Part shown: positions 2,494 to 59,717 of the stretch, one piece after another | Position numbering within the stretch: position 1 is the first letter of the stretch | Layout of the letters: each line of letters begins with the position of its first letter | IMG/VR virus record: IMGVR_UViG_3300012942_000032 | Location: 58,282-122,281 of that record | DNA: 64,000 nucleotides | Source: a virus | Lineage: Duplodnaviria; Heunggongvirae; Uroviricota; Caudoviricetes | Direction: 5' to 3' (one strand) | Translations under genes and position numbers: made by a program | The notes under the pieces: model-generated | The model's input: the letters and a program-made list of their open reading frames with translations, nothing else | Told to the model about the DNA's origin: nothing | The model's database searches: none

Positions 2494-2680
2494 CTCAATA
2501 TTCTTTCTTGTTCGAAAACCATTTACCTACGAAATTCAAAGTAGGAACTGAAATCAATTTTACAAGTTCCTTGCCGTCTTCTTCGCAGAAGTGCGGCTCC
2601 TCAGATTCTGCAATCGACATTCTCTTTTCGTAGACTCGATCGCACTTCGGACAATGAAAATCATACCATGGCATGTTCTA

Positions 2681-2914
2681 TCAATCTTCCCTTACTACAA
2701 CAGGGCCCACATAGGTAGCCTGAATATAGTAATCAGGAGCAGTGGGAGAAGAACAGTATTTAGTATTCGTTTCTTCTACGTTCTTAAGAGCAAGTTCTTC
2801 AGACAAGAAATCAGTGTTCCAGCTATCAGAACCCCAGCCGCGCTCTGATTCATAAAACGAAACTCTGTACTTGATCTTTTCCATTATGTTGCCTTCTCTG
2901 GATACCAGAACCAT
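2681..2914 (-). CDS. hypothetical protein (77 aa)
   Basis: ORF track. Confidence 0.4.
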   Translation of the reverse strand: MVLVSREGNIMEKIKYRVSFYESERGWGSDSWNTDFLSEELALKNVEETNTKYCSSPTAPDYYIQATYVGPVVVRED

Positions 2915-3123
2915 TGAACATGCGTTATATCAGCATCAAACCTGCGCCAGTGAACCTCGCTTGGTTTAACTGTTATGGGATAAATTTTACTTGAAGTTCC
3001 AAGCTTTGCATAGCCCAGTTTATCAGACAGTTTCTTACTTTTAACGAGCTTTAAGAATTTCTTCAGATCCATCTTTTCTGAAGTATATTCTTGCTCTTTG
3101 AAGAACTTGAAAGCCATTACCAT
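2884..3123 (-). CDS. hypothetical basic protein (79 aa)
   Basis: ORF track. Confidence 0.4.
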   Translation of the reverse strand: MVMAFKFFKEQEYTSEKMDLKKFLKLVKSKKLSDKLGYAKLGTSSKIYPITVKPSEVHWRRFDADITHVQWFWYPEKAT

Positions 3124-3323
3124 TTACCTAATGGGCAGGTAGACTGAGCATATTTTACCTTTGCAGGAAGATAGCATCCACATTCGCCACATTGTTTCAG
3201 GAGTTTACGAAATTTATCACACGTCACACAAATAGACATGCGCCTATTTTGATCTGCCTCTGGAGCATAAACAATGTTGCCAGAGACGGCATCTTTTGCT
3301 AGATCTATAATTCCATACGCCAT
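3117..3323 (-). CDS. hypothetical zinc-ribbon protein (68 aa)
   Basis: CVTC...CGECGC...C cysteine pairs. Confidence 0.45.
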   Translation of the reverse strand: MAYGIIDLAKDAVSGNIVYAPEADQNRRMSICVTCDKFRKLLKQCGECGCYLPAKVKYAQSTCPLGKW

Positions 3324-3332
3324 CAGAAGATC

Positions 3333-3608
3333 TCAAAATAATGAAAATAAACCTTCTAGATTGAAGGTAGAATCTTGTCCATAATGTGATTTGCGCATCG
3401 CCAGACGAATAAGCTTCTGATCATCTGTCAAGAAGGAGAGTGCTTCATGTACTCCAGAGATTCCACACATGGGTTTATCTATGTTTGAAACATAATGATC
3501 ATTTGCAACATTCATCAGTTTATCAATCAAGGCATCTTTATCTTCTTCAGGAGGTGCTTCTTGAGTTTGAGGATTAAATCCCAATTTGTAACGCGACATA
3601 TCTCTCAT
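3333..3608 (-). CDS. hypothetical protein (91 aa)
   Basis: ORF track. Confidence 0.45.
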   Translation of the reverse strand: MRDMSRYKLGFNPQTQEAPPEEDKDALIDKLMNVANDHYVSNIDKPMCGISGVHEALSFLTDDQKLIRLAMRKSHYGQDSTFNLEGLFSLF

Positions 3609-3826
3609 TAAAAATTCTCCCTTAGAAGACGCCCAATATGATATGATTGTGGATTCTTGTAGACGATCCTCTTCTGTTCTGAATTACCACAACAGAAATT
3701 GGTTTGAGCTTCTTTCAGAATAACATCTTCATCTTGCTTCAAAATCTTGATGATTTCTTCTGCAATCGCAATTTGTCTATCAGTTAAAGCCACGCCAAGA
3801 ATCCACCAGACGCATTTCAATATCAC
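3608..3826 (-). CDS. hypothetical protein (72 aa)
   Basis: ORF track. Confidence 0.4.
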   Translation of the reverse strand: MILKCVWWILGVALTDRQIAIAEEIIKILKQDEDVILKEAQTNFCCGNSEQKRIVYKNPQSYHIGRLLRENF

Positions 3827-4130
3827 GACCCTTCTTGATTAGAGTATCTTCATCAAGATAGAAGGCATTGCACGTCATCCAATACTTTCCATTGTCACCC
3901 ATTACAGACATCGAGAAAATTCCCTTCTCGCCTTCTTTGGCAATGGAAGGATCTCGTGTAACAGAAATCTCTACAGGTTTAACTTCATTGGTTTTACTCC
4001 TACACTTAGGAGCACCAAAGACTGTAGGGCGGAACCAGGTTTCTAGGCCGCCCTTGCTAACCACAGAAGATTTTTCAAACTTGTTCTTTTCTAACCATTC
4101 AATGTATGTCATACTGCTAGTCCTCTTCAA
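3780..4130 (-). CDS. hypothetical protein (116 aa)
   Basis: ORF track. Confidence 0.45.
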   Translation of the reverse strand: MKRTSSMTYIEWLEKNKFEKSSVVSKGGLETWFRPTVFGAPKCRSKTNEVKPVEISVTRDPSIAKEGEKGIFSMSVMGDNGKYWMTCNAFYLDEDTLIKKGRDIEMRLVDSWRGFN

Positions 4131-5660: not shown

Positions 5661-5885
5661 TCAATTTTCCAGACTTTCTGCTTTTCTTCCACGGTGCGCC
5701 TCGATTACTTTGTCCGCATTAGGCCAAGAACCGTCTACTATCGCTTTGTAGTAATCCAGTTCAAAATCCAGACTCTCGTACTGCTCACAGAGTTCGTCCC
5801 AGAATTTCCTTTCTTCAGGATCCTCGATCTTCTTGAGGTGTTCTTCGTATTCATCGAGACGCTGACACACGGTACAATCACACAT
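5661..5885 (-). CDS. hypothetical protein (74 aa)
   Basis: ORF track; CxxC at the N-terminus. Confidence 0.45.
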   Translation of the reverse strand: MCDCTVCQRLDEYEEHLKKIEDPEERKFWDELCEQYESLDFELDYYKAIVDGSWPNADKVIEAHRGRKAESLEN

Positions 5886-6225
5886 CGCATTCTCCAGCTT
5901 CTATGATACTTTCTAGTCTTCTGATTTCAGTGCGAAGATCTTCTACCTCAGATTCCAGACGTCTGATATCAAAACGAACTTCATCTAATTCAGATTCTAT
6001 TTGATCCTTATCTTTCACTGCTTCTCTTAGCGCATCACGAAGTTTGAAGGTACCTACATCTTTGATCGTCTCACAGAGCTCATCCATAGCAGAATTAAAG
6101 ATAGCTTCATTCTCTGGAGTAATCAGAACATGAAGTTTATCCCATGCATCAACAAATGCTTGCTCTACACCAGGACAAGTCTCAGGACAATAACCAAAGA
6201 CTTCTCTTTCCAAATAACGATTCAT
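5878..6225 (-). CDS. hypothetical coiled-coil protein (115 aa)
   Basis: ORF track; repeated DIRRLESEVEDLRTEIRRLESI heptads. Confidence 0.45.
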   Translation of the reverse strand: MNRYLEREVFGYCPETCPGVEQAFVDAWDKLHVLITPENEAIFNSAMDELCETIKDVGTFKLRDALREAVKDKDQIESELDEVRFDIRRLESEVEDLRTEIRRLESIIEAGECDV

Positions 6226-6233
6226 CGGAATTC

Positions 6234-6422
6234 TCAGACCAAAGTCATTTGATGCTCTTGAAATTTCATTTCGTAAGCATCTAACACATCATAATCAAAT
6301 TCGATTTTAAGAACAGCTTTGAGGAATCCTAAACTGTCTGAGACTTTAGAGGTCCACCTTGTGTTACCTTCCTTATCTCTAATCTTAAGCCTATAGAGCT
6401 TGAAAAGATTTTGAGCAGACAT
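6234..6422 (-). CDS. hypothetical protein (62 aa)
   Basis: ORF track. Confidence 0.4.
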   Translation of the reverse strand: MSAQNLFKLYRLKIRDKEGNTRWTSKVSDSLGFLKAVLKIEFDYDVLDAYEMKFQEHQMTLV

Positions 6423-6478
6423 AAGATTCCCCTGACTCTACAATGATATTATTGCAGGTTTCTACAGGTCTGTCAAGA

Positions 6479-7600
6479 TTAATATGTGAATGGTGCCGTT
6501 GGAGGAGTGAAATCAGAAGTATATCTAGATATACCTGATGTAATACGAAATTCGTCTATATACCCGCTAAAGAACTCATTTAGGTTTTCATGACCACCAA
6601 TTTGATTTATATTCCAAGAACTAGAGTCATTTCTAACAGAAACTTGATCAATACCATTTAAATAAAGTCTAATTTCTCCTGAAATTCTACAAAGTGCTAC
6701 ATGAAACCATTCATTTAGAGGATATGAATTAGAGGTAATTCTATCAGAAGCATCATATAATACGACGCAACCGTCTTTTAGATATAATCCATATGTGTTG
6801 TTATAAATGGATAGAGTTTGATACTTTCCAGATTCTCCAATAGTTGTAGAATAAACCCATAATTCTATTGTAAAATCTGAAGGTAAATTAATCGGATCAG
6901 GATATGCTTGAAGATATGAAGAATTAAAAAAGAAACTTCCAGAACCAAATTTCTTATTATTGTGGCTAATTGTTGACCCATTGGTCACATCTGAAAGAAC
7001 CCATGATTCACCATATAAATCAGATAATGAAAATCCATCTATTTTATCAAAATGAAGGAGCGATTTAGTATATGAGAATATAATCTTTACATCTATCAAA
7101 CAATAATCTGTTGTTATAGGAGTGGAAATTTTCAAAGTAAAATTAGAAACTCCTTCGCTTGATATTGCCCCAGAAACAATCAGATTATCATCGTCAATGG
7201 AAAAATTTATTCCAGAATCTTCAGGCCCAGATACAATAGACACAGAGTAAGGTCCAGGAGTACCAGTTATGGATTTGGTGACGTCAACTGAATTTCCTAA
7301 AGGGATTGTCCCTAAATCAAGTAGTGGACCACCATCAACCACAACAGGCATTGCATAAGGAGCTCTACGTGAAGAAATTACATCATCAAGAATATCTCCA
7401 CCTCTGGCAATAATGTCAAAGACAGAATCCATATCAAGATTAGAAAATCTCCAGGTTCCATCAGAAAAGCTCTGAGTAGTTCCACACCATTCAGAGTTAA
7501 AATAAAGATCAATTGTTGTTACAAAAGGAGTACCATTACGGCTAACAATGTTAGGTGAGTCTCCTCCAAGATATCCAGTTCCTGATGGGGGCGAAATCAT
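6479..7600 (-). CDS. LamG-like (concanavalin A-like lectin/glucanase) domain protein; paralog of the plus-strand structural LamG proteins
   Basis: The C-terminal ...EWFHVALCRISGEIRLYLNG...GYIDEFRITSGISRYTSDFTPPTAPFTY is nearly identical in protein sequence to the C-terminus of 15690..16982. Confidence 0.7.
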   Translation of the reverse strand: MISPPSGTGYLGGDSPNIVSRNGTPFVTTIDLYFNSEWCGTTQSFSDGTWRFSNLDMDSVFDIIARGGDILDDVISSRRAPYAMPVVVDGGPLLDLGTIPLGNSVDVTKSITGTPGPYSVSIVSGPEDSGINFSIDDDNLIVSGAISSEGVSNFTLKISTPITTDYCLIDVKIIFSYTKSLLHFDKIDGFSLSDLYGESWVLSDVTNGSTISHNNKKFGSGSFFFNSSYLQAYPDPINLPSDFTIELWVYSTTIGESGKYQTLSIYNNTYGLYLKDGCVVLYDASDRITSNSYPLNEWFHVALCRISGEIRLYLNGIDQVSVRNDSSSWNINQIGGHENLNEFFSGYIDEFRITSGISRYTSDFTPPTAPFTY

Positions 7601-8040
7601 AGTTTAGATGCTGCTCCTACGGCTAAACGATCACATTCTTCATTATACTTATGACCTGCATGACCCTTTACCCAAGTCCATTTAATTCTGTGAGGTCGTG
7701 CAACTCTGATCAGTTCCTTCCAATAATCTGGATTCTTCACATCCTTGAAGTTCTTCTTAATCCAACCTGGCAACCATTCAGAAGCACCTTTCACAACGTA
7801 ATTGGAATCTGTGACTACCTCAACGAAAGCAGGATCAGAACCAATGTACTTGAAAGCTTCAATGACCGCAGTAATTTCCATCTGATTGTTCGTCGCACCC
7901 TTTACACCTCCAGAACCTTGATAGGTATTAAATTCATCATTTTTAGGGACACAGATAAATGCCCAACCACCACGAGCATGAGGTTTACCGTTATCTAGGG
8001 AAGAACCATCAGCATAGAGTGTATAGTGTTTCATGATCAA
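7597..8040 (-). CDS. rnhA: ribonuclease H, type 1 (RnhA-like)
   Basis: Carries the LYADGSS...GGWAF...NNQMEITAVIEA...VVTDSNYVV...WVKGHAGHKYNEECDRLA catalytic D/E/D/D signature. Confidence 0.85.
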   Translation of the reverse strand: MIMKHYTLYADGSSLDNGKPHARGGWAFICVPKNDEFNTYQGSGGVKGATNNQMEITAVIEAFKYIGSDPAFVEVVTDSNYVVKGASEWLPGWIKKNFKDVKNPDYWKELIRVARPHRIKWTWVKGHAGHKYNEECDRLAVGAASKL

Positions 8041-8442: not shown

Positions 8443-9363
8443 TTATATGCGAGTACGCTTGTTTCTGCTACCCAAGGGATTAATAGTGATTCTACAATTC
8501 TTGACGCCTTTGTCTGAACGATCTGTCTTGTAGACGGCATACAAGGTGGGTTCGTATTCTCCCAAAATCTCGTCCCCATTCTCGTATGTGTGCGCAGACC
8601 CTTGAATTACAAAAGCTTTCTTAGAAAAATTCCAAACAAGCTTCACATCACCCTGAAGGACTAACTGGACATTATCACGTCCATATTCCTGACCATAGTT
8701 CTTACCGTACACCGAAACAACTTTCAATCTTGTATCTTGAAACTCACGGAACAAAGTCGTCCCTGCAACAAGACCTCTGGGATAAAGTTTTTCAATATCA
8801 CGAGCAAAACGATTGATGTGTTCGTTATAAGCCATGAACGTATCTGACAAACCAGACACTCCGCCCCATTGCTGGAAGTGAATAGGCTTAGATCCGTGCT
8901 TATGGGAGATCCAGATACACTCTTCTCCATTACCGTTGATCAGATGAAAATCTGCTTTAGGTGTACCAGGAGTGCTTTCTGCATGGGAGATATGATGTAC
9001 TTGTCCGCACACATAAACAGGAACAAGTCCAGTTGAGAACTCGCATCTATCAGTGTTATGAAGATGTCTGTTAAGGGCATTCAAAGCATCATTTTCACGC
9101 TTCAAACCATTTCCCTTACCTCCAAATTCAGATGTCTTAGCTAAGTCTGAAAGCTTATACTCGTTACCCTCATGATCGTAAAGACGAAACTGTCTAAACT
9201 CATCTTGAGTTGCATCTAAGATACGAAAGCGTCTAGTGAAATGATGAATTAGTACATTGGCACCATTCATTAATTCGAAGGGAGACTGTTCTTTAATCTT
9301 CTTAAGAATTAACTCTCTACGCCATGTGTATTTGCAGATCTCTGCTGGACTTAACGACTTCAT
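8443..9363 (-). CDS. hypothetical protein (306 aa), possibly a PD-(D/E)xK-type nuclease
   Basis: ORF track. The weak motif ADFHLINGNGEECIWISHK resembles D...E.K. No confident family assignment. Confidence 0.5.
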   Translation of the reverse strand: MKSLSPAEICKYTWRRELILKKIKEQSPFELMNGANVLIHHFTRRFRILDATQDEFRQFRLYDHEGNEYKLSDLAKTSEFGGKGNGLKRENDALNALNRHLHNTDRCEFSTGLVPVYVCGQVHHISHAESTPGTPKADFHLINGNGEECIWISHKHGSKPIHFQQWGGVSGLSDTFMAYNEHINRFARDIEKLYPRGLVAGTTLFREFQDTRLKVVSVYGKNYGQEYGRDNVQLVLQGDVKLVWNFSKKAFVIQGSAHTYENGDEILGEYEPTLYAVYKTDRSDKGVKNCRITINPLGSRNKRTRI

Positions 9364-9914
9364 AATCTACTCCATTGATTAACAAGAATTTAGTTCTTTA
9401 GAACAAATGAACTAAACTAATGCTCAGGAGTGATTTGAAGTCACACTTTGGCTATCTACACCAAAGTGTTTGGAAAAGGCGTCAGTCTGCGACCCTCATC
9501 ACATTAGTACACAGAGTGAGTAACTTCTAAACTCAGGACGTGGGAATCGGCAACGCCCTATACTCTGACACTGGTCTCTCGCGAGAATTCCGCCAGAGAG
9601 TTATCCTTGATCTAATGAGAATAACCCTCACACCTGTTGCCGTGCCGCAGAGCAGGTCATACTTTGATCGCATGTCAAACGATCTTTCATTCACTTATAT
9701 CTAGTTGGTCGCGTTGCGCATATACCAACCCGAAAGTCGAGCTTACGTTGCGAGTTACCAACGATTAGACTTTCTCATCTTTTTCATAATGTAAGCAAGG
9801 ATTCACATCCTTGCGGAAGTTAAGGCGTATTGTATGCGATAATTCACACAATGCAAAGAGCAAGTTTCATAACAGAACCAAAGAATGTGAATACTTGCTA
9901 CGCTGCACGCTTGC

Positions 9915-9960
9915 GCAGTAGCAGCACGCGCAACGCACAAAACCGCACGCACACGGGATC
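9915..9960 (+). repeat. GC-rich intergenic repeat family member (AGCAGCAC...AACCGCACG...GGGATC)
   Basis: Shares the AACCGCACG core and a GATC-ending tail with the copies at 18311-18370 and 22321-22370. Confidence 0.6.
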
Positions 9961-10046
9961 TCCACATTGTAAGTGCTTGTTTTTATTATGCGGATTTTGG
10001 GATTTTTGCGTACACAAGCAAACCAAACAGATCCTGCAGTCAGCAG

Positions 10047-10082
10047 AAAGGCGCAAAGTTTCCAATGCGCCTTTCTTTTGTT
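10047..10082 (+). terminator. rho-independent terminator-like hairpin (AAAGGCGCA-loop-TGCGCCTTT followed by CTTTTGTT)
   Basis: A 9-bp GC-rich stem followed by a T-run on the plus strand. Confidence 0.5.
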
Positions 10083-10377
10083 ACTGATTCTTTTCGTCGT
10101 TTGTTTTCTGGAGCAATTCTTCTTCGTGTTTCTGCTCGCCACCTACTCTTGCGGCAGCCAAGATTCGATACCACGAAGTAACATTGACTCCATGAAAGCT
10201 CTTGTCGATCGCACCCTTCATTGCAGCATCTTCTTCGCCACGCATGTGCCTCATCAGAGCATATTCGATCACCATTGTAGTTTCCGGTGAATCGTATCCA
10301 CATTCTTTGAGGGCACGGAGTCCTGCTGCAACATTGATGCGATCGACGTTGTGTCCAGGAATTAGACCAACTCGCAT
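10081..10377 (-). CDS. hypothetical protein (98 aa)
   Basis: ORF track; lies in a region of elevated GC. Confidence 0.45.
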   Translation of the reverse strand: MRVGLIPGHNVDRINVAAGLRALKECGYDSPETTMVIEYALMRHMRGEEDAAMKGAIDKSFHGVNVTSWYRILAAARVGGEQKHEEELLQKTNDEKNQ

Positions 10378-40254: not shown

Positions 40255-40481
40255 TGGCTGATCTTCCTACAATTTGTCAACCATGCCCTGAACAACCAGA
40301 AATTCAATTGGTTTCAGAGTTGCCTTCATCTATGTGCCCTTGCCCTGAACCAGCGCCTGATGACAATTCCGCTATTCTTCCTACAATTACAACAATCACT
40401 GTCACCGATGATTGTTTTCAGAGTATGCTCTACAATATGACATCAGTCAAGTTCTGTAATATAGGTCCTAAGGCTTGTTAA
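40254..40481 (+). CDS. small Cys/Pro-rich protein (75 aa) preceding the PAAR gene
   Basis: CQPCPEQPE...CPCPEP motifs; TAATG coupling. Confidence 0.5.
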   Translation: MADLPTICQPCPEQPEIQLVSELPSSMCPCPEPAPDDNSAILPTITTITVTDDCFQSMLYNMTSVKFCNIGPKAC

Positions 40482-40506
40482 ATACAGAGTATTCTAGGAG
40501 AAATAA

Positions 40507-40794
40507 ATGGGATTGCCCGTAGCACGAATCCAAGATATGTGTTCTGGTCATGATTGTCATAGCCCCAGACCTGCTATTCAGGGTTCTGTAAACGTCTTCG
40601 TTAACAAAAGAGGTGTTAATGGGATGGGCGATATGTGGGCTGTTCATTGTTGCGATGACTGTCATCCAGGTAATACTGCTGCAGGTTCTAGTTCTGTTTT
40701 CGTAAACGGAAAAGAAGTAGGTAGAATAGGCGATCAAATTTCATGCGGAAGCGTCATTATGACAGGATCCGCAAACGTATTTGCAGGTGGGTAA
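40507..40794 (+). CDS. PAAR-repeat spike-tip protein (gp5.4-like)
   Basis: Cys/His ligands (CSGHDCHSP, HCCDDCHPG) and beta-strand repeats SSVFVNGK / ANVFAGG typical of PAAR. Confidence 0.75.
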   Translation: MGLPVARIQDMCSGHDCHSPRPAIQGSVNVFVNKRGVNGMGDMWAVHCCDDCHPGNTAAGSSSVFVNGKEVGRIGDQISCGSVIMTGSANVFAGG

Positions 40795-51906: not shown

Positions 51907-52103
51907 TGAAAGAAAAAGTTCGAGATTATCCAGGTCTGGTTAAAGTTGATAGAGCCTTTGTAGTCAATACAAACGATACTGAATACAGAAAAGCTCTTGC
52001 AAGGAACAAACAACAAAAGAAGTTAGAGGGCATGGATGCCCGCTTGACTTCCTTAGAAGGAAAATTGGATCAAATCCTATCACTCTTAGGAGCAGGTAAA
52101 TGA
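51906..52103 (+). CDS. hypothetical small protein (65 aa)
   Basis: ORF track; lies between the giant gene and gp13. Confidence 0.45.
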   Translation: MKEKVRDYPGLVKVDRAFVVNTNDTEYRKALARNKQQKKLEGMDARLTSLEGKLDQILSLLGAGK

Positions 52104-52366
52104 CTTCTACAAACCCTAACTGGGCAGAAATGTCCGACGATTTAAAAATCATCGAAATGATGGCGGACGGTTTTGACCACGTGGATACTAAGATTCAAGC
52201 AATTACTCAGGATATCCAAGATATCAGAGAATCGTTATCTAGTCTAGAGACAATGTTAGGTGATCCTTCTAGATTAAATGATAAGAGTATTGTTGACACT
52301 CTAAATACAATTGTAGAAATGCTTGAAACTACTCAAGCGAATGTGTCAGCTTCTCAACAGAAATAA
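52100..52366 (+). CDS. hypothetical small acidic coiled-coil protein (88 aa)
   Basis: ORF track. Confidence 0.45.
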   Translation: MTSTNPNWAEMSDDLKIIEMMADGFDHVDTKIQAITQDIQDIRESLSSLETMLGDPSRLNDKSIVDTLNTIVEMLETTQANVSASQQK

Positions 52367-52374
52367 GGTAGATT

Positions 52375-53769: not shown

Positions 53770-54512
53770 TGGTAAGAAATATCTTCTATTATGGCACTAC
53801 AAAAAAGATCATCGTCGGATTTGCATCTTGTTTCGATGATATTCGTTATGTAGATGGTCATGGACAAACTATCTTGGTTCCTATCCATTATTCGCCTAAA
53901 GAAAAATTCATTGAATTGATCCAAGCAAATCCTGATTTTGACAATACGAATTTTGATATTACTCTACCTCAGATGGGTTTTGAGATTACAGATATCAAAT
54001 TTGATTCATCACGACATACAAATCCATTGTCAAAAATTGATGATGTAGATTCTACTTCTGGCGAACAATATATGTTCAACAGAGTACCTTACAATTTTGA
54101 AGTTAGCCTTTACATTGCAGCAAGAAGATTTGAAGATTCCTTGAAGATTGTGGAACAAATTATTCCTTTCTTTACGCCCGAATTAACAATTACGATCAAT
54201 GATAAAGAAGATTATAATCTTCAGACGAATGTTCCTATCATTTTAAATGATGCTCAATTCGACATTGATTATGAAGGTTCGTTCAATACCAAGAGAACCA
54301 TTACTTGGACTTTGAATTTTACAGTGAAAGGATTTTATTACTCAAATCCAAGAGATGCAAAGCGTATTAAGCAATCAATTGTTGAATTGCATAACGAAGA
54401 TTTCGATCGTTATTTCACAAAATATACGGCAACTGTAGATCCATTTGAAGCTACTCCATCTGAACCGCATACTATTGTAGAAACTACTGAAACGGTATTA
54501 AATGATGACTGA
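53769..54512 (+). CDS. 15: tail sheath stabilizer/completion protein gp15-like
   Basis: VPIHYSPKEKF and IVEQIIPFFTPE motifs match T4 gp15 (VPITYASKEHF, IVEQILPYFQP). Confidence 0.75.
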   Translation: MVRNIFYYGTTKKIIVGFASCFDDIRYVDGHGQTILVPIHYSPKEKFIELIQANPDFDNTNFDITLPQMGFEITDIKFDSSRHTNPLSKIDDVDSTSGEQYMFNRVPYNFEVSLYIAARRFEDSLKIVEQIIPFFTPELTITINDKEDYNLQTNVPIILNDAQFDIDYEGSFNTKRTITWTLNFTVKGFYYSNPRDAKRIKQSIVELHNEDFDRYFTKYTATVDPFEATPSEPHTIVETTETVLNDD

Positions 54513-54966
54513 TGCAATCTCAAAATCACTAGGTGTTGCTGAACCTAAGCAATTGATGTCTGCAGAAACAGAAGTCGCACGAGTGACCGATGTAACAAGA
54601 ACCCTTGTTGATGCAAAGAAGGAAAATCAAACTTCTGATTATGAAGATGCAAGAACTAATATCAAGTCTATCATTAAAGACTCTATGTCATTAGTTCCTG
54701 ATCTAGTTAATCTGACCAGAGAAGCATATAGTGATAAGATGTATAAAGCTGCTGCTGAATTCCTTGCTACTTTAGCAGATCTAAATGTTTCTCTAGTAGG
54801 TTTATCGGAAACAAAAGAAGTTTCTTCTTCGCAAAAAATTAAACCTGAAGAATCTAAACCTCAAGAAAAACGTGAAGTTAAGGTCTTCATTGGAACTACA
54901 GAAGAGATGCTAGACCGAGTTTCTTCACAAGAGAAGTTGCCTGTCCAAATTCAAGACAATGTTTAA
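54502..54966 (+). CDS. 16: terminase small subunit gp16-like
   Basis: Acidic protein of about 154 aa immediately upstream of the large terminase, as in T4-like order. Confidence 0.5.
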   Translation: MMTDAISKSLGVAEPKQLMSAETEVARVTDVTRTLVDAKKENQTSDYEDARTNIKSIIKDSMSLVPDLVNLTREAYSDKMYKAAAEFLATLADLNVSLVGLSETKEVSSSQKIKPEESKPQEKREVKVFIGTTEEMLDRVSSQEKLPVQIQDNV

Positions 54967-55431
54967 GGGATGGGTTACTCAATCCCATTAGCTCCCTTGT
55001 GACGATACTAGATCGTTCAGTTATTTGCTTTTCTTCCCAGAAAAGCTCACTAGCGACAGGAGCTCATTTTCTCGTCAGAGTTTCATTACTATCCTGTCTG
55101 TCAGTCTCATGCAATCCCAGTTCGGCTGGCACCTGAAAATTGCATTACCTAACACGTTTCAAACGGTTAGTCTGACACCTTTGTCGGAGATATAATCTCC
55201 CTAGCATATAGATGATGACTAGTAACCTGTCTATATACTACCCGTTTCGGTAAAACCCTAATGGTGCAAGCGGGGTTTCATCTGTTGGCTGCGCTACTCC
55301 GGGTCACTCCGTTAACTTTTGGGCTCGGACGAGTGATGAGTTTCTTAAATATTCTAGTCTTTCAGTCTTTAAACAGGAGCAATGCTAACTTCTAATCATG
55401 CGTTTGCATAGTCTGAGTTAGATAATGTATC

Positions 55432-57012
55432 ATGGAATACGATTTCATTAAAGAGAATAGCTATAATGGCAACGGCAAACTTAAAAAAGCCGGTGTCAGA
55501 ATGGAAATCACTGCAGAAGAACAACAAGAGTTCATTAAATGTAGAGATGACTTTTTCTATTTTCTAGAGACATATTGTAAGATCATTTCTCTGGATGAAG
55601 GTCTAGTAAATTTCAAACTTTATCCATATCAAAAGAAAATGATGAAAATGATGGAGGATAATCGTTTCAATATCTTCCTTCTTCCTCGCCAGATGGGTAA
55701 GACAATCACTGTTGCTGCTTACCTTTGTTGGTGTGCAATTTTCAATAGACGTTTCAATATTGCTATTCTTGCTAATAAAGCTGAACAAGCAAGAGAAATT
55801 ATGTCTCGTCTTCAATTGATGTACGAAGAACTTCCTTGGTTTCTTCAACCTGGCGTCAAGACTTGGAATAAAGGTGACATTTGGTTGGGAAACGGCTCAA
55901 AAGTATTTACCGCAGCAACCACTGGTTCATCTGTTCGTGGTAAGTCGCTGAACATTGTTTACCTTGACGAATTTGCATTCGTAGAAAATGATGTTGAGTT
56001 CTATACTTCTACCTACCCTGTTATTACATCAGGTAAGAAGACTAAAGTAATTATTACCTCCACTCCTAATGGAATGAATCTGTTCTATAAGCTTTGGACA
56101 GATGCAATGGAAGGTAGAAGTGCATACAAACATCTTCAAGTACATTGGTCTGAACATCCCAATCGCGATGAATCCTGGAAACAAGATCAGCTTCGCAATA
56201 TGGATGAGAAGCAATTCAATCAGGAATTTGGTTGTCAATTCTTGGGGTCTACAGACACTTTGATTTCAGGTCATAAGCTTCAACAATTAACCTTTGTAGA
56301 AGCAATTGGCGGTGATGAAAAGTTCTTTAAAATCTATTCTCAACCAGAGAAAGATCGATCTTATGTAATCACCACTGACGTATCAGAAGGTATTGCAAAG
56401 GATTATTCTGTCATCAATGTCTTCGATGTAACTGAAGCTCCTTACAAACAGGCAGCAATCTATAGAAGCAACATTGTTCCCCCATTGCTACTTTCAGAAG
56501 CTCTATTCAGAATTGCGAATATGTATAACTCTGGAGTCGTAATTGTAGAAAATAACAATATGGGTTCTGATGTTTGTAATTCACTCTGGAATGACTATGA
56601 GTATGAAAATATGCTCATTACCAGGAACAAGAACAATGAAAGCTTAATCAGAGAAGGTCGTCAATCTAACGTAGGCATTAGGACCACGAATAAAACAAAG
56701 TTGATTGGATGCTCTTCTTTGAAATCACTGATCGAAAGTAATACATTAGTGATCTATGATTTTGAAACCGTCAAAGAATTAACGACGTTTATCAAAAAAG
56801 GTAAATCATACGAAGCTGAAAAAGGTAAGAATGATGACATTGTCATGTCAATGGTCTTATTTGCATGGTTCGTTCATCAACCATACTTTTCAGAAATGGT
56901 AGATCTAAACGTAAAAGCATTAACCAAGGACAATCTGTACGATGAGTATTCCATCTGTTTAGGCTTTTTTGCAGATGGAACGGAAACAGACAATGATTCA
57001 TTCATATGGTAA
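55432..57012 (+). CDS. 17: terminase large subunit gp17
   Basis: KCRDDFFYFLETYCKI, Walker A-like LPRQMGKTIT, IVYLDEFAF, and the ITSTPNGMNLFYKLW RNase-H-fold nuclease segment all align with T4 gp17. Confidence 0.9.
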   Translation: MEYDFIKENSYNGNGKLKKAGVRMEITAEEQQEFIKCRDDFFYFLETYCKIISLDEGLVNFKLYPYQKKMMKMMEDNRFNIFLLPRQMGKTITVAAYLCWCAIFNRRFNIAILANKAEQAREIMSRLQLMYEELPWFLQPGVKTWNKGDIWLGNGSKVFTAATTGSSVRGKSLNIVYLDEFAFVENDVEFYTSTYPVITSGKKTKVIITSTPNGMNLFYKLWTDAMEGRSAYKHLQVHWSEHPNRDESWKQDQLRNMDEKQFNQEFGCQFLGSTDTLISGHKLQQLTFVEAIGGDEKFFKIYSQPEKDRSYVITTDVSEGIAKDYSVINVFDVTEAPYKQAAIYRSNIVPPLLLSEALFRIANMYNSGVVIVENNNMGSDVCNSLWNDYEYENMLITRNKNNESLIREGRQSNVGIRTTNKTKLIGCSSLKSLIESNTLVIYDFETVKELTTFIKKGKSYEAEKGKNDDIVMSMVLFAWFVHQPYFSEMVDLNVKALTKDNLYDEYSICLGFFADGTETDNDSFIW

Positions 57013-57060: not shown

Positions 57061-59031
57061 ATGGCTTCATCTCAAACAAGCCCAGGCGTAGTGGTTCAGG
57101 AAACTGATTTAACCAACTTCGTTGCTAGTGTTGGCACCTCGGGCGGTGCATTTGTAGGCGGTTTTGCATGGGGTCCTGTAGAACAGTACACAACTCTAGC
57201 TAGTGCAACCGACCTAGAAGCTCAATTTGGTAAGCCAGATGACACTAATTATGTCGATTGGTTCTCGGCATCAAACTTCCTTAGCTATACTGGTCAGCTA
57301 ATTCTTGTCCGTGTTGTTGATGAGAATGCGCTGAATTCGTCAGATGACGGTGATGGTATTCTGATTAAGAATGATAATGATTTCCAGATTGTTAGCTCAA
57401 CTGGACCAACTGGTGTGCATTTTGCTGGTAAGTTCCCAGGCACTCTTGGTAACTCACTAGGTGTGTATGCTTGTGATGCTACTGGATTTGATACTTGGCA
57501 GTACAAGGGTTCATTTGACTCTGCTCCAGGCACTTCAGAAGCTGCTGCTGCTGTAGGCGCAAGCAATGACGAACTTCATGTCGTTGTGGTAGATCTTCAT
57601 GGTAAGTTCTCAGGAACTCCAGGTAGTGTTCTAGAATCTTTCGCATACCTTTCAAAAGCAAAGGATGCAAAGGATATCAACAATGCTCCTAACTACTATG
57701 TCAACGTTCTGAATAGATCCTCACAATACATTCGTGCTCTTACGGCACTGAATGGTGAAAGCGGTTCAGCTGGTGGTGCTGTTACTTCAGTGACTGTAAC
57801 AGATGCTGGTTCTGGATACACAGATGCTACGGTTGCTTTTAGTGCTCCTCCTGCAGGTGGCGTTCAAGCAACTGGTACGGTTCAACTAGATGCTGGTGCT
57901 ATTACAGGTGTGACGATTACCAATCCTGGTAAGGGTTACACGGCTGCTCCTACAGTGACGATTACTGGTACAGGCGGAACCGGTGCAACTGCGACAGCCG
58001 CAGTGAGTGCAATTGTTACGACTGTTGATTGGGGAACTGCTCTTATTGTTGCTGGTGTGCCTTCTGCTTACTCAAGCCTGGCTGCTCCTGTTTCCATGCC
58101 GCTGACTGGTGGTGTTGATAGCACTTCAATTGGTTCACAAGAGCTGATCACTGGCTACTCAATGTTCGAGAATGCAGAGCAGGTTGATGTAAGCTTGATC
58201 TTTGTGGGTTCAGCAGGCGGCGATGATGAAATGGACACTGTTGTTCAATTTGTGATTGACAATGTTTGCGAATCCAGAAAGGATTGCATGGTATTCTTCT
58301 CACCAAAGCTAACTGACGTGCTGAATGTGACTCAGAGCGCTGCTGCAACCAATGTTGTTGCAACTCGCAATCTGATTGCTCGTTCTAGCTCATATGCAGT
58401 TATGGATAGTGGATGGAAGCTACAGTATGACGTCTATGCTGACAAGTACCGTTGGATTCCTCTGAATGCCGATATTGCTGGTCTTTGCGCTCGCGTAGAT
58501 ACCACAAATGATGCTTGGTGGAGCCCTGCAGGATACAATCGCGGTCAGATCAAGAATGTTGTATCTCTTGCATTCAATCCGAACAAGACCTCACGAGATG
58601 CAATCTATAAGGTTGGAATTAACCCTGTGGTTACTTTCAATACTGATGGAACTATTCTTTATGGAGATAAGACGCTTCTAGGAAAGAATAGTGCATTCAG
58701 CTTCATCGGAACACGTCGTCTGTTCATCTTGCTTGAGAAGACAATTAGCGGTGCTGCAAAGTATTCACTATTTGAATTCAATGATCAGTACACGCAGGCT
58801 GCTTTTGTGAACATGGTTGAGCCTCAGCTTCGTACAGTGAAGGGTCGCCGCGGTATGGAAGACTACCGTATTGTTTGCGATAGCTCAAATAACACTGATG
58901 CAGTGATCCAGGCAGGTCAGTTTGTTGGATCAATTTTCATCAAGCCTCAATATAGCATCCAATGGGTGCAACTGAACTTCGTAGCAGTACGTCGTGAAGT
59001 GAGCTTCGATGAAGTCGTAGGCGTTGTTTAA
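57061..59031 (+). CDS. 18: tail sheath protein gp18
   Basis: The N-terminal SPGVVVQETDLTNFVASVGTSGGAFVGGFAWGP aligns with the T4 gp18 SPGIELKETTVQS...GKFQWGP. The protein is about 656 aa. It carries an inserted GYT-repeat segment. Confidence 0.9.
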   Translation: MASSQTSPGVVVQETDLTNFVASVGTSGGAFVGGFAWGPVEQYTTLASATDLEAQFGKPDDTNYVDWFSASNFLSYTGQLILVRVVDENALNSSDDGDGILIKNDNDFQIVSSTGPTGVHFAGKFPGTLGNSLGVYACDATGFDTWQYKGSFDSAPGTSEAAAAVGASNDELHVVVVDLHGKFSGTPGSVLESFAYLSKAKDAKDINNAPNYYVNVLNRSSQYIRALTALNGESGSAGGAVTSVTVTDAGSGYTDATVAFSAPPAGGVQATGTVQLDAGAITGVTITNPGKGYTAAPTVTITGTGGTGATATAAVSAIVTTVDWGTALIVAGVPSAYSSLAAPVSMPLTGGVDSTSIGSQELITGYSMFENAEQVDVSLIFVGSAGGDDEMDTVVQFVIDNVCESRKDCMVFFSPKLTDVLNVTQSAAATNVVATRNLIARSSSYAVMDSGWKLQYDVYADKYRWIPLNADIAGLCARVDTTNDAWWSPAGYNRGQIKNVVSLAFNPNKTSRDAIYKVGINPVVTFNTDGTILYGDKTLLGKNSAFSFIGTRRLFILLEKTISGAAKYSLFEFNDQYTQAAFVNMVEPQLRTVKGRRGMEDYRIVCDSSNNTDAVIQAGQFVGSIFIKPQYSIQWVQLNFVAVRREVSFDEVVGVV

Positions 59032-59671: not shown

Positions 59672-59717
59672 ACCCGCCTCGCCTCTCTTTGAAGCGCAAA
59701 TAGGCGGGTCTTCTTGA
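59672..59717 (+). terminator. terminator-like hairpin after the tube gene
   Basis: CCCGCCT...AGGCGGG followed by TCTTCTT. Confidence 0.5.

Follow-up and report, generated by a model that had tools for sequence, protein, structure and literature searches.

The 64,000-nucleotide stretch considered here, hereafter the window, spans positions 58,282 to 122,281 of the IMG/VR virus record IMGVR_UViG_3300012942_000032 (Caudoviricetes) and carries, between its genes for the small (terS) and large (terL) terminase subunits, a 465-nt gap at positions 54967-55431 that is very probably non-coding: neither a gene nor a spacer but a selected RNA structure. The gap consists of two parts, a folded RNA at approximately 54964-55345, designated W-type, and a TAAATA box with the terL leader at 55346-55431. 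Judged from the aligned sequences, the W-type fold is kept by selection in every relative with that sequence type, and the clade to which the window's phage belongs reserves the slot between terS and terL for a large structured RNA. At a probability of roughly 0.45, we favour the reading in which the W-type is a discrete functional RNA over one in which it acts in cis on terL or terS. An earlier note, made from the letters of this stretch alone, had drawn attention to an open reading frame (ORF)-free, structured gap at this place; PHROG and Pfam matches of the flanking genes bear out the gap itself, one nucleotide shorter than the 466 bp then given.

The case for the fold is comparative. Besides the window, W-type RNAs are carried by L022/L023 and L024 (TerL 88% identical to that of the window), by L028 (61%), and by L045, whose TerL is 89% identical to that of L028. 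Helices were identified with RNAalifold and by explicit pair counting in two alignments, A4 with four sequences and A8 with five (window, L022, L024, L028, and L045) and a pseudoknot, and were compared with controls in which the partners were slid by 1-3 columns or the alignment was shuffled. Among the pair cells of A4, 93% are standard, and 23 of 90 pairs have changed on both sides, as compared with 2-5 in the slid controls and 9.8 ± 2.2 in the shuffles, of which 0 of 500 reached the observed value. The corresponding figures for A8 are 92.4% of pair cells paired and 25 of 77 pairs compensatory, versus 1-6 in the slid controls. This comparative evidence is much stronger than that from the single sequence, where the minimum free energy of 54964-55345 gives a z of -3.1 on the + strand (0/100 shuffles as good) and -1.9 on the - strand. 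Many G-U pairs are invariant and would become A-C on the opposite strand, which assigns the W-type RNA to the + strand, the sense of the flanking genes.

Conservation points in the same direction. Alignment of the junction of genes 16 and 17 with those of relatives, a check that the earlier note had proposed, reveals a conserved structure and 80-82% identity to L022 and L024 over the RNA (84-87% in its 3' half), as compared with 78% for terL, 74-78% for gp18, 69-74% for gp15, and 66-69% for terS. The RNA part is thus conserved at or above the level of the flanking genes, contrary to what an unconserved spacer would show. The last 86 nt of the gap, the box and leader, are 58-67% identical to L022 and L024; for the leader, identity to L028 is 31%.

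The RNA comprises at least 12 helices, including a probable pseudoknot (Table 1). A small structured RNA had been among the first suggestions for this region; covariation, G-U pairs, and conservation uphold the structure, and a length of ~380 nt with this many helices is not small. The three hairpins singled out in the earlier note (54967-54989, 55186-55200, and 55253-55278) are all present, each with compensatory changes. The first of these, GGGAUGGG...CCCAU, lies within the 5' hairpin, whose inner helix AUGGG/CCCAU becomes AUGAG/CUCAU in L024 and whose outer helix has undergone a matched one-base deletion on both strands in L022, L028, and L045. The stem at 55186-55200 reads GUGC/GCAC in L022, ACGCA/UGCGU in L024, and GAUGC/GCAUC in L028, and AAACCC/GGGUUU (55253-55258/55273-55278) is exchanged for CCUCUC/GAGAGG in L028. 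Pairing has also been kept through the rewriting of five of seven pairs at 55055-55061/55092-55098 and of the stem at 55207-55214/55228-55235; the changes in the 3' hairpin at 55292-55335 are one-sided (G-U) only. Several long loops are nearly invariant, namely GUUACUCA, UCCC, GAUGACyAnnAACC, and UAACUUUUGGGCUC.

Two crossing helices probably form a pseudoknot. One pairs UGUCAG with CUGACA, shows a change from G-C to A-U in L028 and L045, and competes in A4 with the local pairings 55099-55105/55125-55131 and 55174-55177/55182-55185. The other, at 55124-55131/55283-55290, crosses the first (55099-55104/55172-55177) and has one covarying pair and three invariant G-U pairs. Because each crossing helix has a single covarying pair and local alternatives compete, the pseudoknot is rated probable only. 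The loop GGGUUA (54972-54977) is also complementary to UAACUU (55313-55318) or UAACC (55222-55226), and these candidates for a kissing-loop contact (GGUUA with UAACC/UAACU) are complementary in five of five sequences and never vary.

Table 1. Coordinates of the W-type RNA, its helices, and associated features in the window.
Feature	Position	Strand	Characteristics and evidence
Structured RNA, W-type, ~380 nt	54964-55345	+	alignments A4 and A8; covariation, conservation, fold energy
5' hairpin	54964-54999	+	outer helix UAAGGGA/UCCCUUG, inner helix AUGGG/CCCAU, invariant loop GUUACUCAnU
Hairpin GACGA/UCGUU	55001-55017	+	helix 4 (A8): 100% paired, 2 compensatory pairs
Hairpin with invariant UCCC loop	55026-55047	+	helix 5 (A8): 5/8 pairs compensatory
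Long hairpin GACAGGA/UCCUGUC, variable interior	55055-55098	+	helix 6 (A8): 97% paired, 5/7 compensatory
Candidate pseudoknot pair UGUCAG/CUGACA	55099-55104 / 55172-55177	+	helix 7 (A8): 100% paired
Long-range helix GGCUGGCA/UGUUGGCU	55124-55131 / 55283-55290	+	helix 8 (A8): 97.5% paired
Hairpin GGAGAU-aua-AUCUCC	55186-55200	+	third hairpin of the earlier note; helix 10 (A4): 4/4 counted pairs compensatory
Hairpin closing nearly invariant 13-nt loop GAUGACyAnnAACC	55207-55235	+	helix 9 (A8): 5/8 compensatory
Hairpin UACC-cguuuc-GGUA	55239-55252	+	helix 10 (A8)
Hairpin AAACCC/GGGUUU	55253-55278	+	second hairpin of the earlier note; helix 11 (A8): 100% paired, 5/6 changed on both sides
3' hairpin with invariant apical UAACUUUUGGGCUC	55292-55335	+	helices 12 and 13 (A8): 94-100% paired
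Late-promoter-like box TAAATA (cuuTAAATAuu)	55346-55351	+	86 nt before the terL ATG; putative, from sequence
terL leader, 80 nt	55352-55431	+	poorly conserved, without clear Shine-Dalgarno sequence
terS (gp16-like, 154 aa)	54502-54966	+	PHROG phrog_445 and phrog_735 'terminase small subunit', E 5e-11; directly after gp15
terL (526 aa)	55432-57012	+	Pfam PF03237 (Terminase_6N) and PF17289 (Terminase_6C)
Type-B copy	9437-9790	+	full-length match (E 9e-27) to the nhmmer profile built from alignment A6

These patterns also bear on the possibility that the conserved region is a DNA-level, pac-type site bound by the small terminase, with the folding of the RNA incidental. The fixed terS-adjacent position across the clade and the long invariant stretches in the 3' half of the W-type would fit such a site, and in P22 and SPP1 the pac sites are located within terS or next to it. 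A double-stranded DNA site would nonetheless not be expected to show crossing helices, G-U pairs specific to one strand, or two-sided changes in 10 or more helices; the hairpins at 55186-55200 and 55253-55278 change their sequence completely while retaining their pairing; and the slot of sister phages holds another sequence, which recurs in inverted orientation ~60 kb from there. We regard a pac-type site as quite improbable.

The gap lies in a + strand T4-type morphogenesis block (gp13, gp14, gp15 (PF16724), terS, gap, terL, and the tail sheath gene) and is the sole large ORF-free interval of the gp13-gp18 stretch. Its G+C content is 0.42-0.455 versus 0.33-0.39 in the flanks. The window's terS is 33-39% identical to those of relatives (tblastn), and its stop codon TAA (54964-54966) forms the first base triplet of the basal helix of the RNA. 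A second apparent gap of 468 nt before gp13 (51907-52374) is filled by two packed ORFs of 65 and 88 aa, and another interval, of 488 nt, lies at 40255-40742.

Mechanical reading of the + strand of the gap does yield ORFs of 45 (GTG), 56 (TTG), and 44 (ATG) codons, at odds with the earlier statement that none exceeds about 20 codons; these have zero matches in Pfam and PHROGs, and no gap ORF is conserved across all W-type relatives compared. Substitutions relative to three relatives are distributed over the codon positions as 33/31/33, 31/36/31, and 60/58/56, without codon periodicity, and the lengths of the indels (1, 2, 5, 11, 14, and 22 nt) are not multiples of three. That a conserved small protein gene was missed here is therefore scarcely credible. 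The best candidate for one, the 44-codon ATG ORF at 55261-55395, is partly kept in L022 and L024, where it is shortened to 31 codons, a persistence explained by its location in the most conserved stretch of the RNA; it has neither a ribosome-binding site nor a family match, and L028, in which compensatory changes have replaced the whole of the helix beneath it, does not have the ORF.

The association of a structured RNA with this position extends well beyond the W-type. All examined relatives whose TerL is 57-88% identical and whose junction is available have terS and terL separated by 417-778 nt; the gap is 507 nt in Stenotrophomonas phage IME-SM1, 591 nt in Acidovorax phage ACP17 (L002), and 497 nt in Xanthomonas phage X1, and the survey also covered ten metagenomic contigs. 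Outside this group, terS and terL overlap in RSP15, are separated in phiM12 by an abutting extra terminase-like gene (gp17.2), and have genes inserted between them in Cr30. A neighbour-joining tree of TerL unites the gap-bearing phages in one clade, with RSP15, phiM12, and Cr30 outside it. The earlier statement that genes 16 and 17 of T4-like phages are normally adjacent or overlapping hence holds for RSP15 and phiM12 but not for the window's own clade, where the gap is universal.

A second RNA, designated type-B and ~330 nt in length, occupies the slot in IME-SM1, X1, L010, L011, L025, L027, L034, L038, L040, and L041, and likewise in the Menderaviruses Moby and Mendera. Its conserved blocks covary, with 21 of 37 alifold pairs compensatory, and it contains an unusually well supported pseudoknot, formed between a hairpin loop and the five bases that directly precede an invariant GCCA. 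At least four pairs of this pseudoknot are kept in 13 of 13 sequences through 11 different pairing sequences, among them GGGAG/CUCCC, GGAAG/CUUCC, GGGUG/CACCC, GGAUU/AAUCC, GAGAC/GUCUC, and GUCAU/AUGAC. Two further hairpins, ACACCUGUUGC...GCAGAGCAGGUC and ACGUCG...CGACG, are also characteristic. The slot of ACP17 holds a third, barely recognisable variant that retains the first type-B hairpin only. In the variable 5' part of type-B gaps, just downstream of terS, a motif (C)GCTTCGCTC recurs (L011 (2026-2215), L010, L025, L027, L034, L038, and L018), which in L011 lies inside an almost perfect inverted repeat of ~40 bp; the motif is not present in the window's gap.

Type-B RNAs also occur away from the terminase genes and opposite in orientation to their neighbours, as shown for IME-SM1, Moby, L039, and the window. 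Within the window, the copy at 9437-9790 (~350 nt) has the pseudoknot GGAAU/AUUCC directly before the invariant GCCA, is without a match in Rfam, and sits in an ORF-poor gap of ~0.7 kb between the minus-strand ORFs 8443-9363 and 10081-10377. A further ~290 nt without a convincing ORF follow on the + strand (9790-10090), with a G+C-rich stretch at 9900-9960 and, at ~10046-10085, a strong hairpin GAAAGGCGCA...UGCGCCUUUC followed by UUUUGUU that looks like a + strand intrinsic terminator, which the terminator scan did not list, probably because its loop is 10 nt long. Close to this region, on the minus strand at 7597-8040, is a gene for a phage RNase H (PF00075).

In IME-SM1, Moby (L033), and 12 further Menderavirus records of full length, type-B is present twice. 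The second copy is ~60 kb from the one beside the terminase genes, near a nicotinamide phosphoribosyltransferase gene, and runs opposite in strand to the genes around it; the paralogues are ~62-69% identical and differ by compensatory changes. The second copy of IME-SM1 corresponds to L036 2922-3246 (record 138442-144642, reverse complement) and has a sigma-70-like promoter upstream (L036 2806-2834). L039 contains a similar stand-alone copy, also opposite in strand to its neighbours, and matches to the type-B pattern in L042 and L043 lie inside ORFs without a profile match and were set aside as chance. Three independent contigs, L029, L030, and L037, have their first base within the RNA, 125-170 nt before terL. 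The start of L037 falls within a 41-nt stretch common to both type-B copies, so that it represents an assembly break at a repeat and not a genome end. In L029 the start falls in a W-type RNA, a hint that the L028-like phage may have a second W-type-related copy.

The W-type phages are nested in the TerL tree inside a clade whose other members carry type-B, and nhmmer profiles detect no homology between the W-type and type-B in either direction at E<=10, so that the W-type is either a replacement of type-B or a descendant diverged beyond recognition. The second of these options, in which one fast-evolving family would encompass both RNAs, is compatible with either reading of function. It draws on the nesting, on the common slot and strand, the similar size (~380 versus ~330 nt), and the pseudoknots of both, as well as on the variant of ACP17 with its single remaining type-B hairpin. 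A covariance model of the type-B 3' half (R1) nevertheless scores at noise level in the window's gap (5.7 bits, E 0.66); the W-type RNA contains no GCCA, and the gap has neither the type-B pseudoknot nor the ACACCUGUUGC...GCAGAGCAGGUC hairpin; MAFFT and blastn do not align the gap with those of IME-SM1 or ACP17; and the window's phage retains a normal type-B copy at 9437-9790. On balance, descent of the W-type from type-B is doubtful.

The clade also has mobile insertions, within terL and not in the gap. The earlier note had proposed that the gap might be what is left of a mobile element, for instance a degraded intron or a homing endonuclease (HEG) footprint, and the presence of such elements close by (the terL insertions of L011, L040, and L045 and a NUMOD3-like gene after gp18 in L024) speaks for the idea. 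The insertions, of 1.0-1.35 kb, interrupt terL in L011 (3493-4565), L040 (~5834-6917, minus strand), and L045 (~2515-3864; L044 515-1864); that of L045 contains a 309-aa endonuclease-like ORF, follows an upstream piece ending ...PRQYGK|CSS..., and looks like an intein or an intron with a homing endonuclease, and several TerL homologues of ~870 aa bear LAGLIDADG or Hom_end domains. The L024 gene (6666-7304, 212 aa, with a faint NUMOD3 match) lies between the tail sheath and tail tube genes and is absent at the same place in the window and L022. The gap itself is a different matter: it contains no ORF remnant, its flanking terS and terL are complete, neither it (E<=10) nor the gaps of relatives (E<=5) match an intron family, and conservation at least like that of terL, together with compensatory changes, signifies purifying selection rather than decay. 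A degraded group I or group II intron or an endonuclease-gene footprint is accordingly very improbable.

Two more specific intron readings were tried and rejected. A group I core with GAUGACUAG-UAACC (55214-55226) as R/P7-P3' and AAAUAUUCUAGUC as J8/7-P7' was considered, together with a pairing that changes from GACUAG/CUAGUC to GACCA/UGGUC in L028; it was dropped because the 3' partner is the TAAATA box of the late promoter, the 5' partner lies in the loop of a covarying hairpin, and the group I model RF00028 is silent. Fusion of gp16 and gp17 by splicing was ruled out, since the distance between the terS stop codon and the conserved 5' end of the RNA differs among relatives, in the range 0-14 nt.

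Searches against known families were uniformly negative for the gap. Rfam 15 gave no match even at E<=10 in 54800-55600 and none at E<=5 in the gap loci of eight relatives, a scope that includes group I and II introns, small ribozymes, the phi29 packaging RNA (pRNA), riboswitches, GOLLD, ROOL, HEARO, OLE, and raiA; the Infernal scan suggested by the earlier note thus returned neither a group I intron nor any other family. RF00028 had no hit at E<=10 in 54800-55600 and none at gathering score across the window, group II introns had no Rfam match and their GUGYG is absent from the 5' end, and the covariance models of the self-cleaving ribozymes in Rfam (hammerhead, twister, pistol, hatchet, HDV-like, and others), of pRNA (RF00044), and of the known riboswitch classes were without a match there. 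ARAGORN and Rfam place tRNA and transfer-messenger RNA (tmRNA) genes only at 401-1914 and none in the gap. A blastn search of the gap region against 50,697 phage records found only terL matches; blastn and nhmmer found no second W-type copy in the window; three pattern scans of IMG/VR for further W-type members produced chance matches only; and a metagenome scan with TerL recovered only type-B or partial loci. Full-text searches of the literature on structured RNAs near phage terminase genes yielded no description of either RNA, and the genome paper of the Menderavirus vB_SmaM_Ps15 does not describe the RNA. A survey of IMG/VR did report candidate structured RNAs consistently upstream of a putative large terminase family (PMC10690425). 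The terminases concerned are of the psiM2_ORF9 type, and the survey gives no further description of these candidates.

The arrangement of transcription signals frames the question of function. From its sequence, terL probably has its own late promoter downstream of the W-type RNA. In L022 and L024 the TAAATA box is retained, and the motif fits the late-promoter type of T4, TATAAATA. Elsewhere in the window TAAATA, usually as GGTAAATAT, occurs 17-73 nt upstream of late genes, and 7 of its 17 + strand copies in 33000-63400 fall in the 6% of the DNA that is intergenic, an enrichment of approximately tenfold. Other relatives have TAAATA, TAAGTA, or TAATTA 40-90 nt upstream of terL, and similar boxes precede gp18 and other genes in relatives. 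As the box sits 3' of the structure, the W-type RNA lies upstream of the terL promoter. The next late-type box upstream is at 52302, within the 51907-52374 interval before gp13. A + strand scan detected neither a sigma-70-type promoter nor an intrinsic terminator flanking the RNA, and its 3' end has no terminator and no U-tract. In view of these features, the RNA is most simply regarded as the 3' continuation of the gp13-terS message; transcripts that read through into terL would still include it, there being no terminator between.

We envision that the W-type RNA would be transcribed late by read-through, as the 3' part of the neck/terS (gp13-gp16) message, and that terL would then be expressed from its own late promoter, the terS/terL overlap of the outgroups having been given up. 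The RNA would fold on its own and act via its tertiary structure, through binding of protein or nucleic acid or possibly catalysis, and its fixed placement beside the terminase genes would provide the late timing. A discrete RNA is preferred because of the invariant loops, the complex fold, the weakly conserved linker to terL, and the free-standing occurrence elsewhere of type-B, its counterpart in the slot. Several points nonetheless weigh against this preference. The W-type is represented by five sequences of three lineages, all from metagenome assemblies, and the covariation counts as an indication, short of a formal test. For some helices the A4 and A8 models offer rival pairings. Statements on where the RNA ends, how it is processed, and how stable it is are read from sequence throughout, and the scan found no flanking promoter or terminator that would delimit it. 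The RNA may never be a separate molecule and may act only in cis, as a possible long-range pairing of 55143-55154 with the region just before the terL start would favour. The argument from type-B is by analogy, the two RNAs lacking detectable homology.

Regulation in cis deserves particular attention, and takes two forms. The segment 55143-55154 could pair with 55415-55427 and mask a weak terL start on read-through transcripts, such that terL would be translated only from transcripts of the nearby late promoter; or the RNA could be a 3' barrier that stabilises the terS message. RNAalifold does predict the long-range helix, with three compensatory pairs; in contrast to gp18 with its AGGAG, terL shows no clear Shine-Dalgarno sequence; there is no terminator between the RNA and terL; and the slot is the exact place of the terS/terL overlap in the outgroups. 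The helix is, however, the weakest of all (79-88% paired, with two mismatches in L022 and largely broken in L028), its partner in the leader belongs to the least conserved part of the gap, and a local leader hairpin competes for the same bases. A barrier or mask, moreover, needs neither ~12 helices nor invariant loops of 9-14 nt, and type-B occurs away from any terminase gene. Taken together, the two forms of control in cis appear unlikely.

We rate the W-type RNA as a new family among the large orphan structured RNAs of phages, with an unusual fixed genomic address. It resembles type-B in clade, slot, strand, approximate size, possession of a pseudoknot, and absence from Rfam, and differs from it in lacking detectable homology of sequence or structure, including the three type-B signatures. 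Like GOLLD (RF01998-type), ROOL, HEARO, OLE, and raiA, it is several hundred nucleotides long with many covarying helices and invariant loops, and like GOLLD and ROOL it is a phage-borne orphan; it is smaller than the latter two, is not beside tRNA genes, has a fixed position at the terminase genes of a lytic T4-like phage, and matches none of the five covariance models. The likeness to the phi29 pRNA is that of a structured phage RNA tied to the packaging machinery, by function for pRNA and by position for the W-type, and the complementary invariant loops of the W-type recall the loop-loop contacts of pRNA, with the qualification that this complementarity is invariant and without covariation. 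The W-type is two to three times larger than pRNA and has no Rfam match, and pRNA is encoded at the genome end, not between terminase genes; to our knowledge, T4-type terminases do not need an RNA. The group I introns of T4-like phages (td, nrdB, and sunY; RF00028) share with the W-type the size range, a pseudoknotted fold, and the type of phage, and are unlike it in lying inside genes, with a conserved exon context; the genes flanking the W-type are intact.

Some other features of the window complete the picture of its RNAs. Over its whole length the matches to Rfam 15 are confined to tRNAs, a permuted tmRNA, and, at the borderline, an abiF motif. Three tRNA genes (Leu-UAA, Val-UAC, and Leu-UAG) and a circularly permuted two-piece tmRNA with the tag AKTKNVAANDDVYAVALAA lie at 401-1914 on the minus strand. 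Permuted tmRNAs are typical of alphaproteobacteria, some betaproteobacteria, and cyanobacteria, and the tmRNA may hint at the host. The abiF motif (59673-59709, + strand, 39.4 bits against a gathering score of 37) follows the tail tube gene and precedes the late gene after it; its sequence (CCCGCCU...AGGCGGGUCUUCUU) can also be taken for an intrinsic terminator and is conserved in L022.

Structured RNAs of more than 300 nt with folds supported by covariation are rare, and many of those with known function are ribozymes or belong to core cellular machinery. It is enticing to speculate that the W-type, and in parallel type-B, represents a new class of large functional phage RNA, either a ribozyme or a pRNA-like partner of the packaging or late-gene machinery; this we consider improbable, and, if true, it would account for the abandonment of the terS/terL overlap by the clade in favour of an RNA of ~0.4 kb. 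More immediately, the analysis adds an RNA family without a database match and a second family, type-B, present in up to two copies per genome, and it corrects annotation, in that the 'empty' terS-terL gaps of 0.4-0.8 kb are not spacers. The clade's cultivated members include the Stenotrophomonas Menderaviruses (IME-SM1/Moby/Mendera), Xanthomonas phage X1, and Acidovorax phage ACP17, and because cultivated phages carry it, type-B is open to genetics at once. If the W-type RNA acts with the packaging or late-expression machinery, the protein-only picture of T4-type terminases would have to be revised; if it is only a cis element, it would constitute a clear case in which a terS/terL overlap was replaced by an RNA module and a separate promoter.

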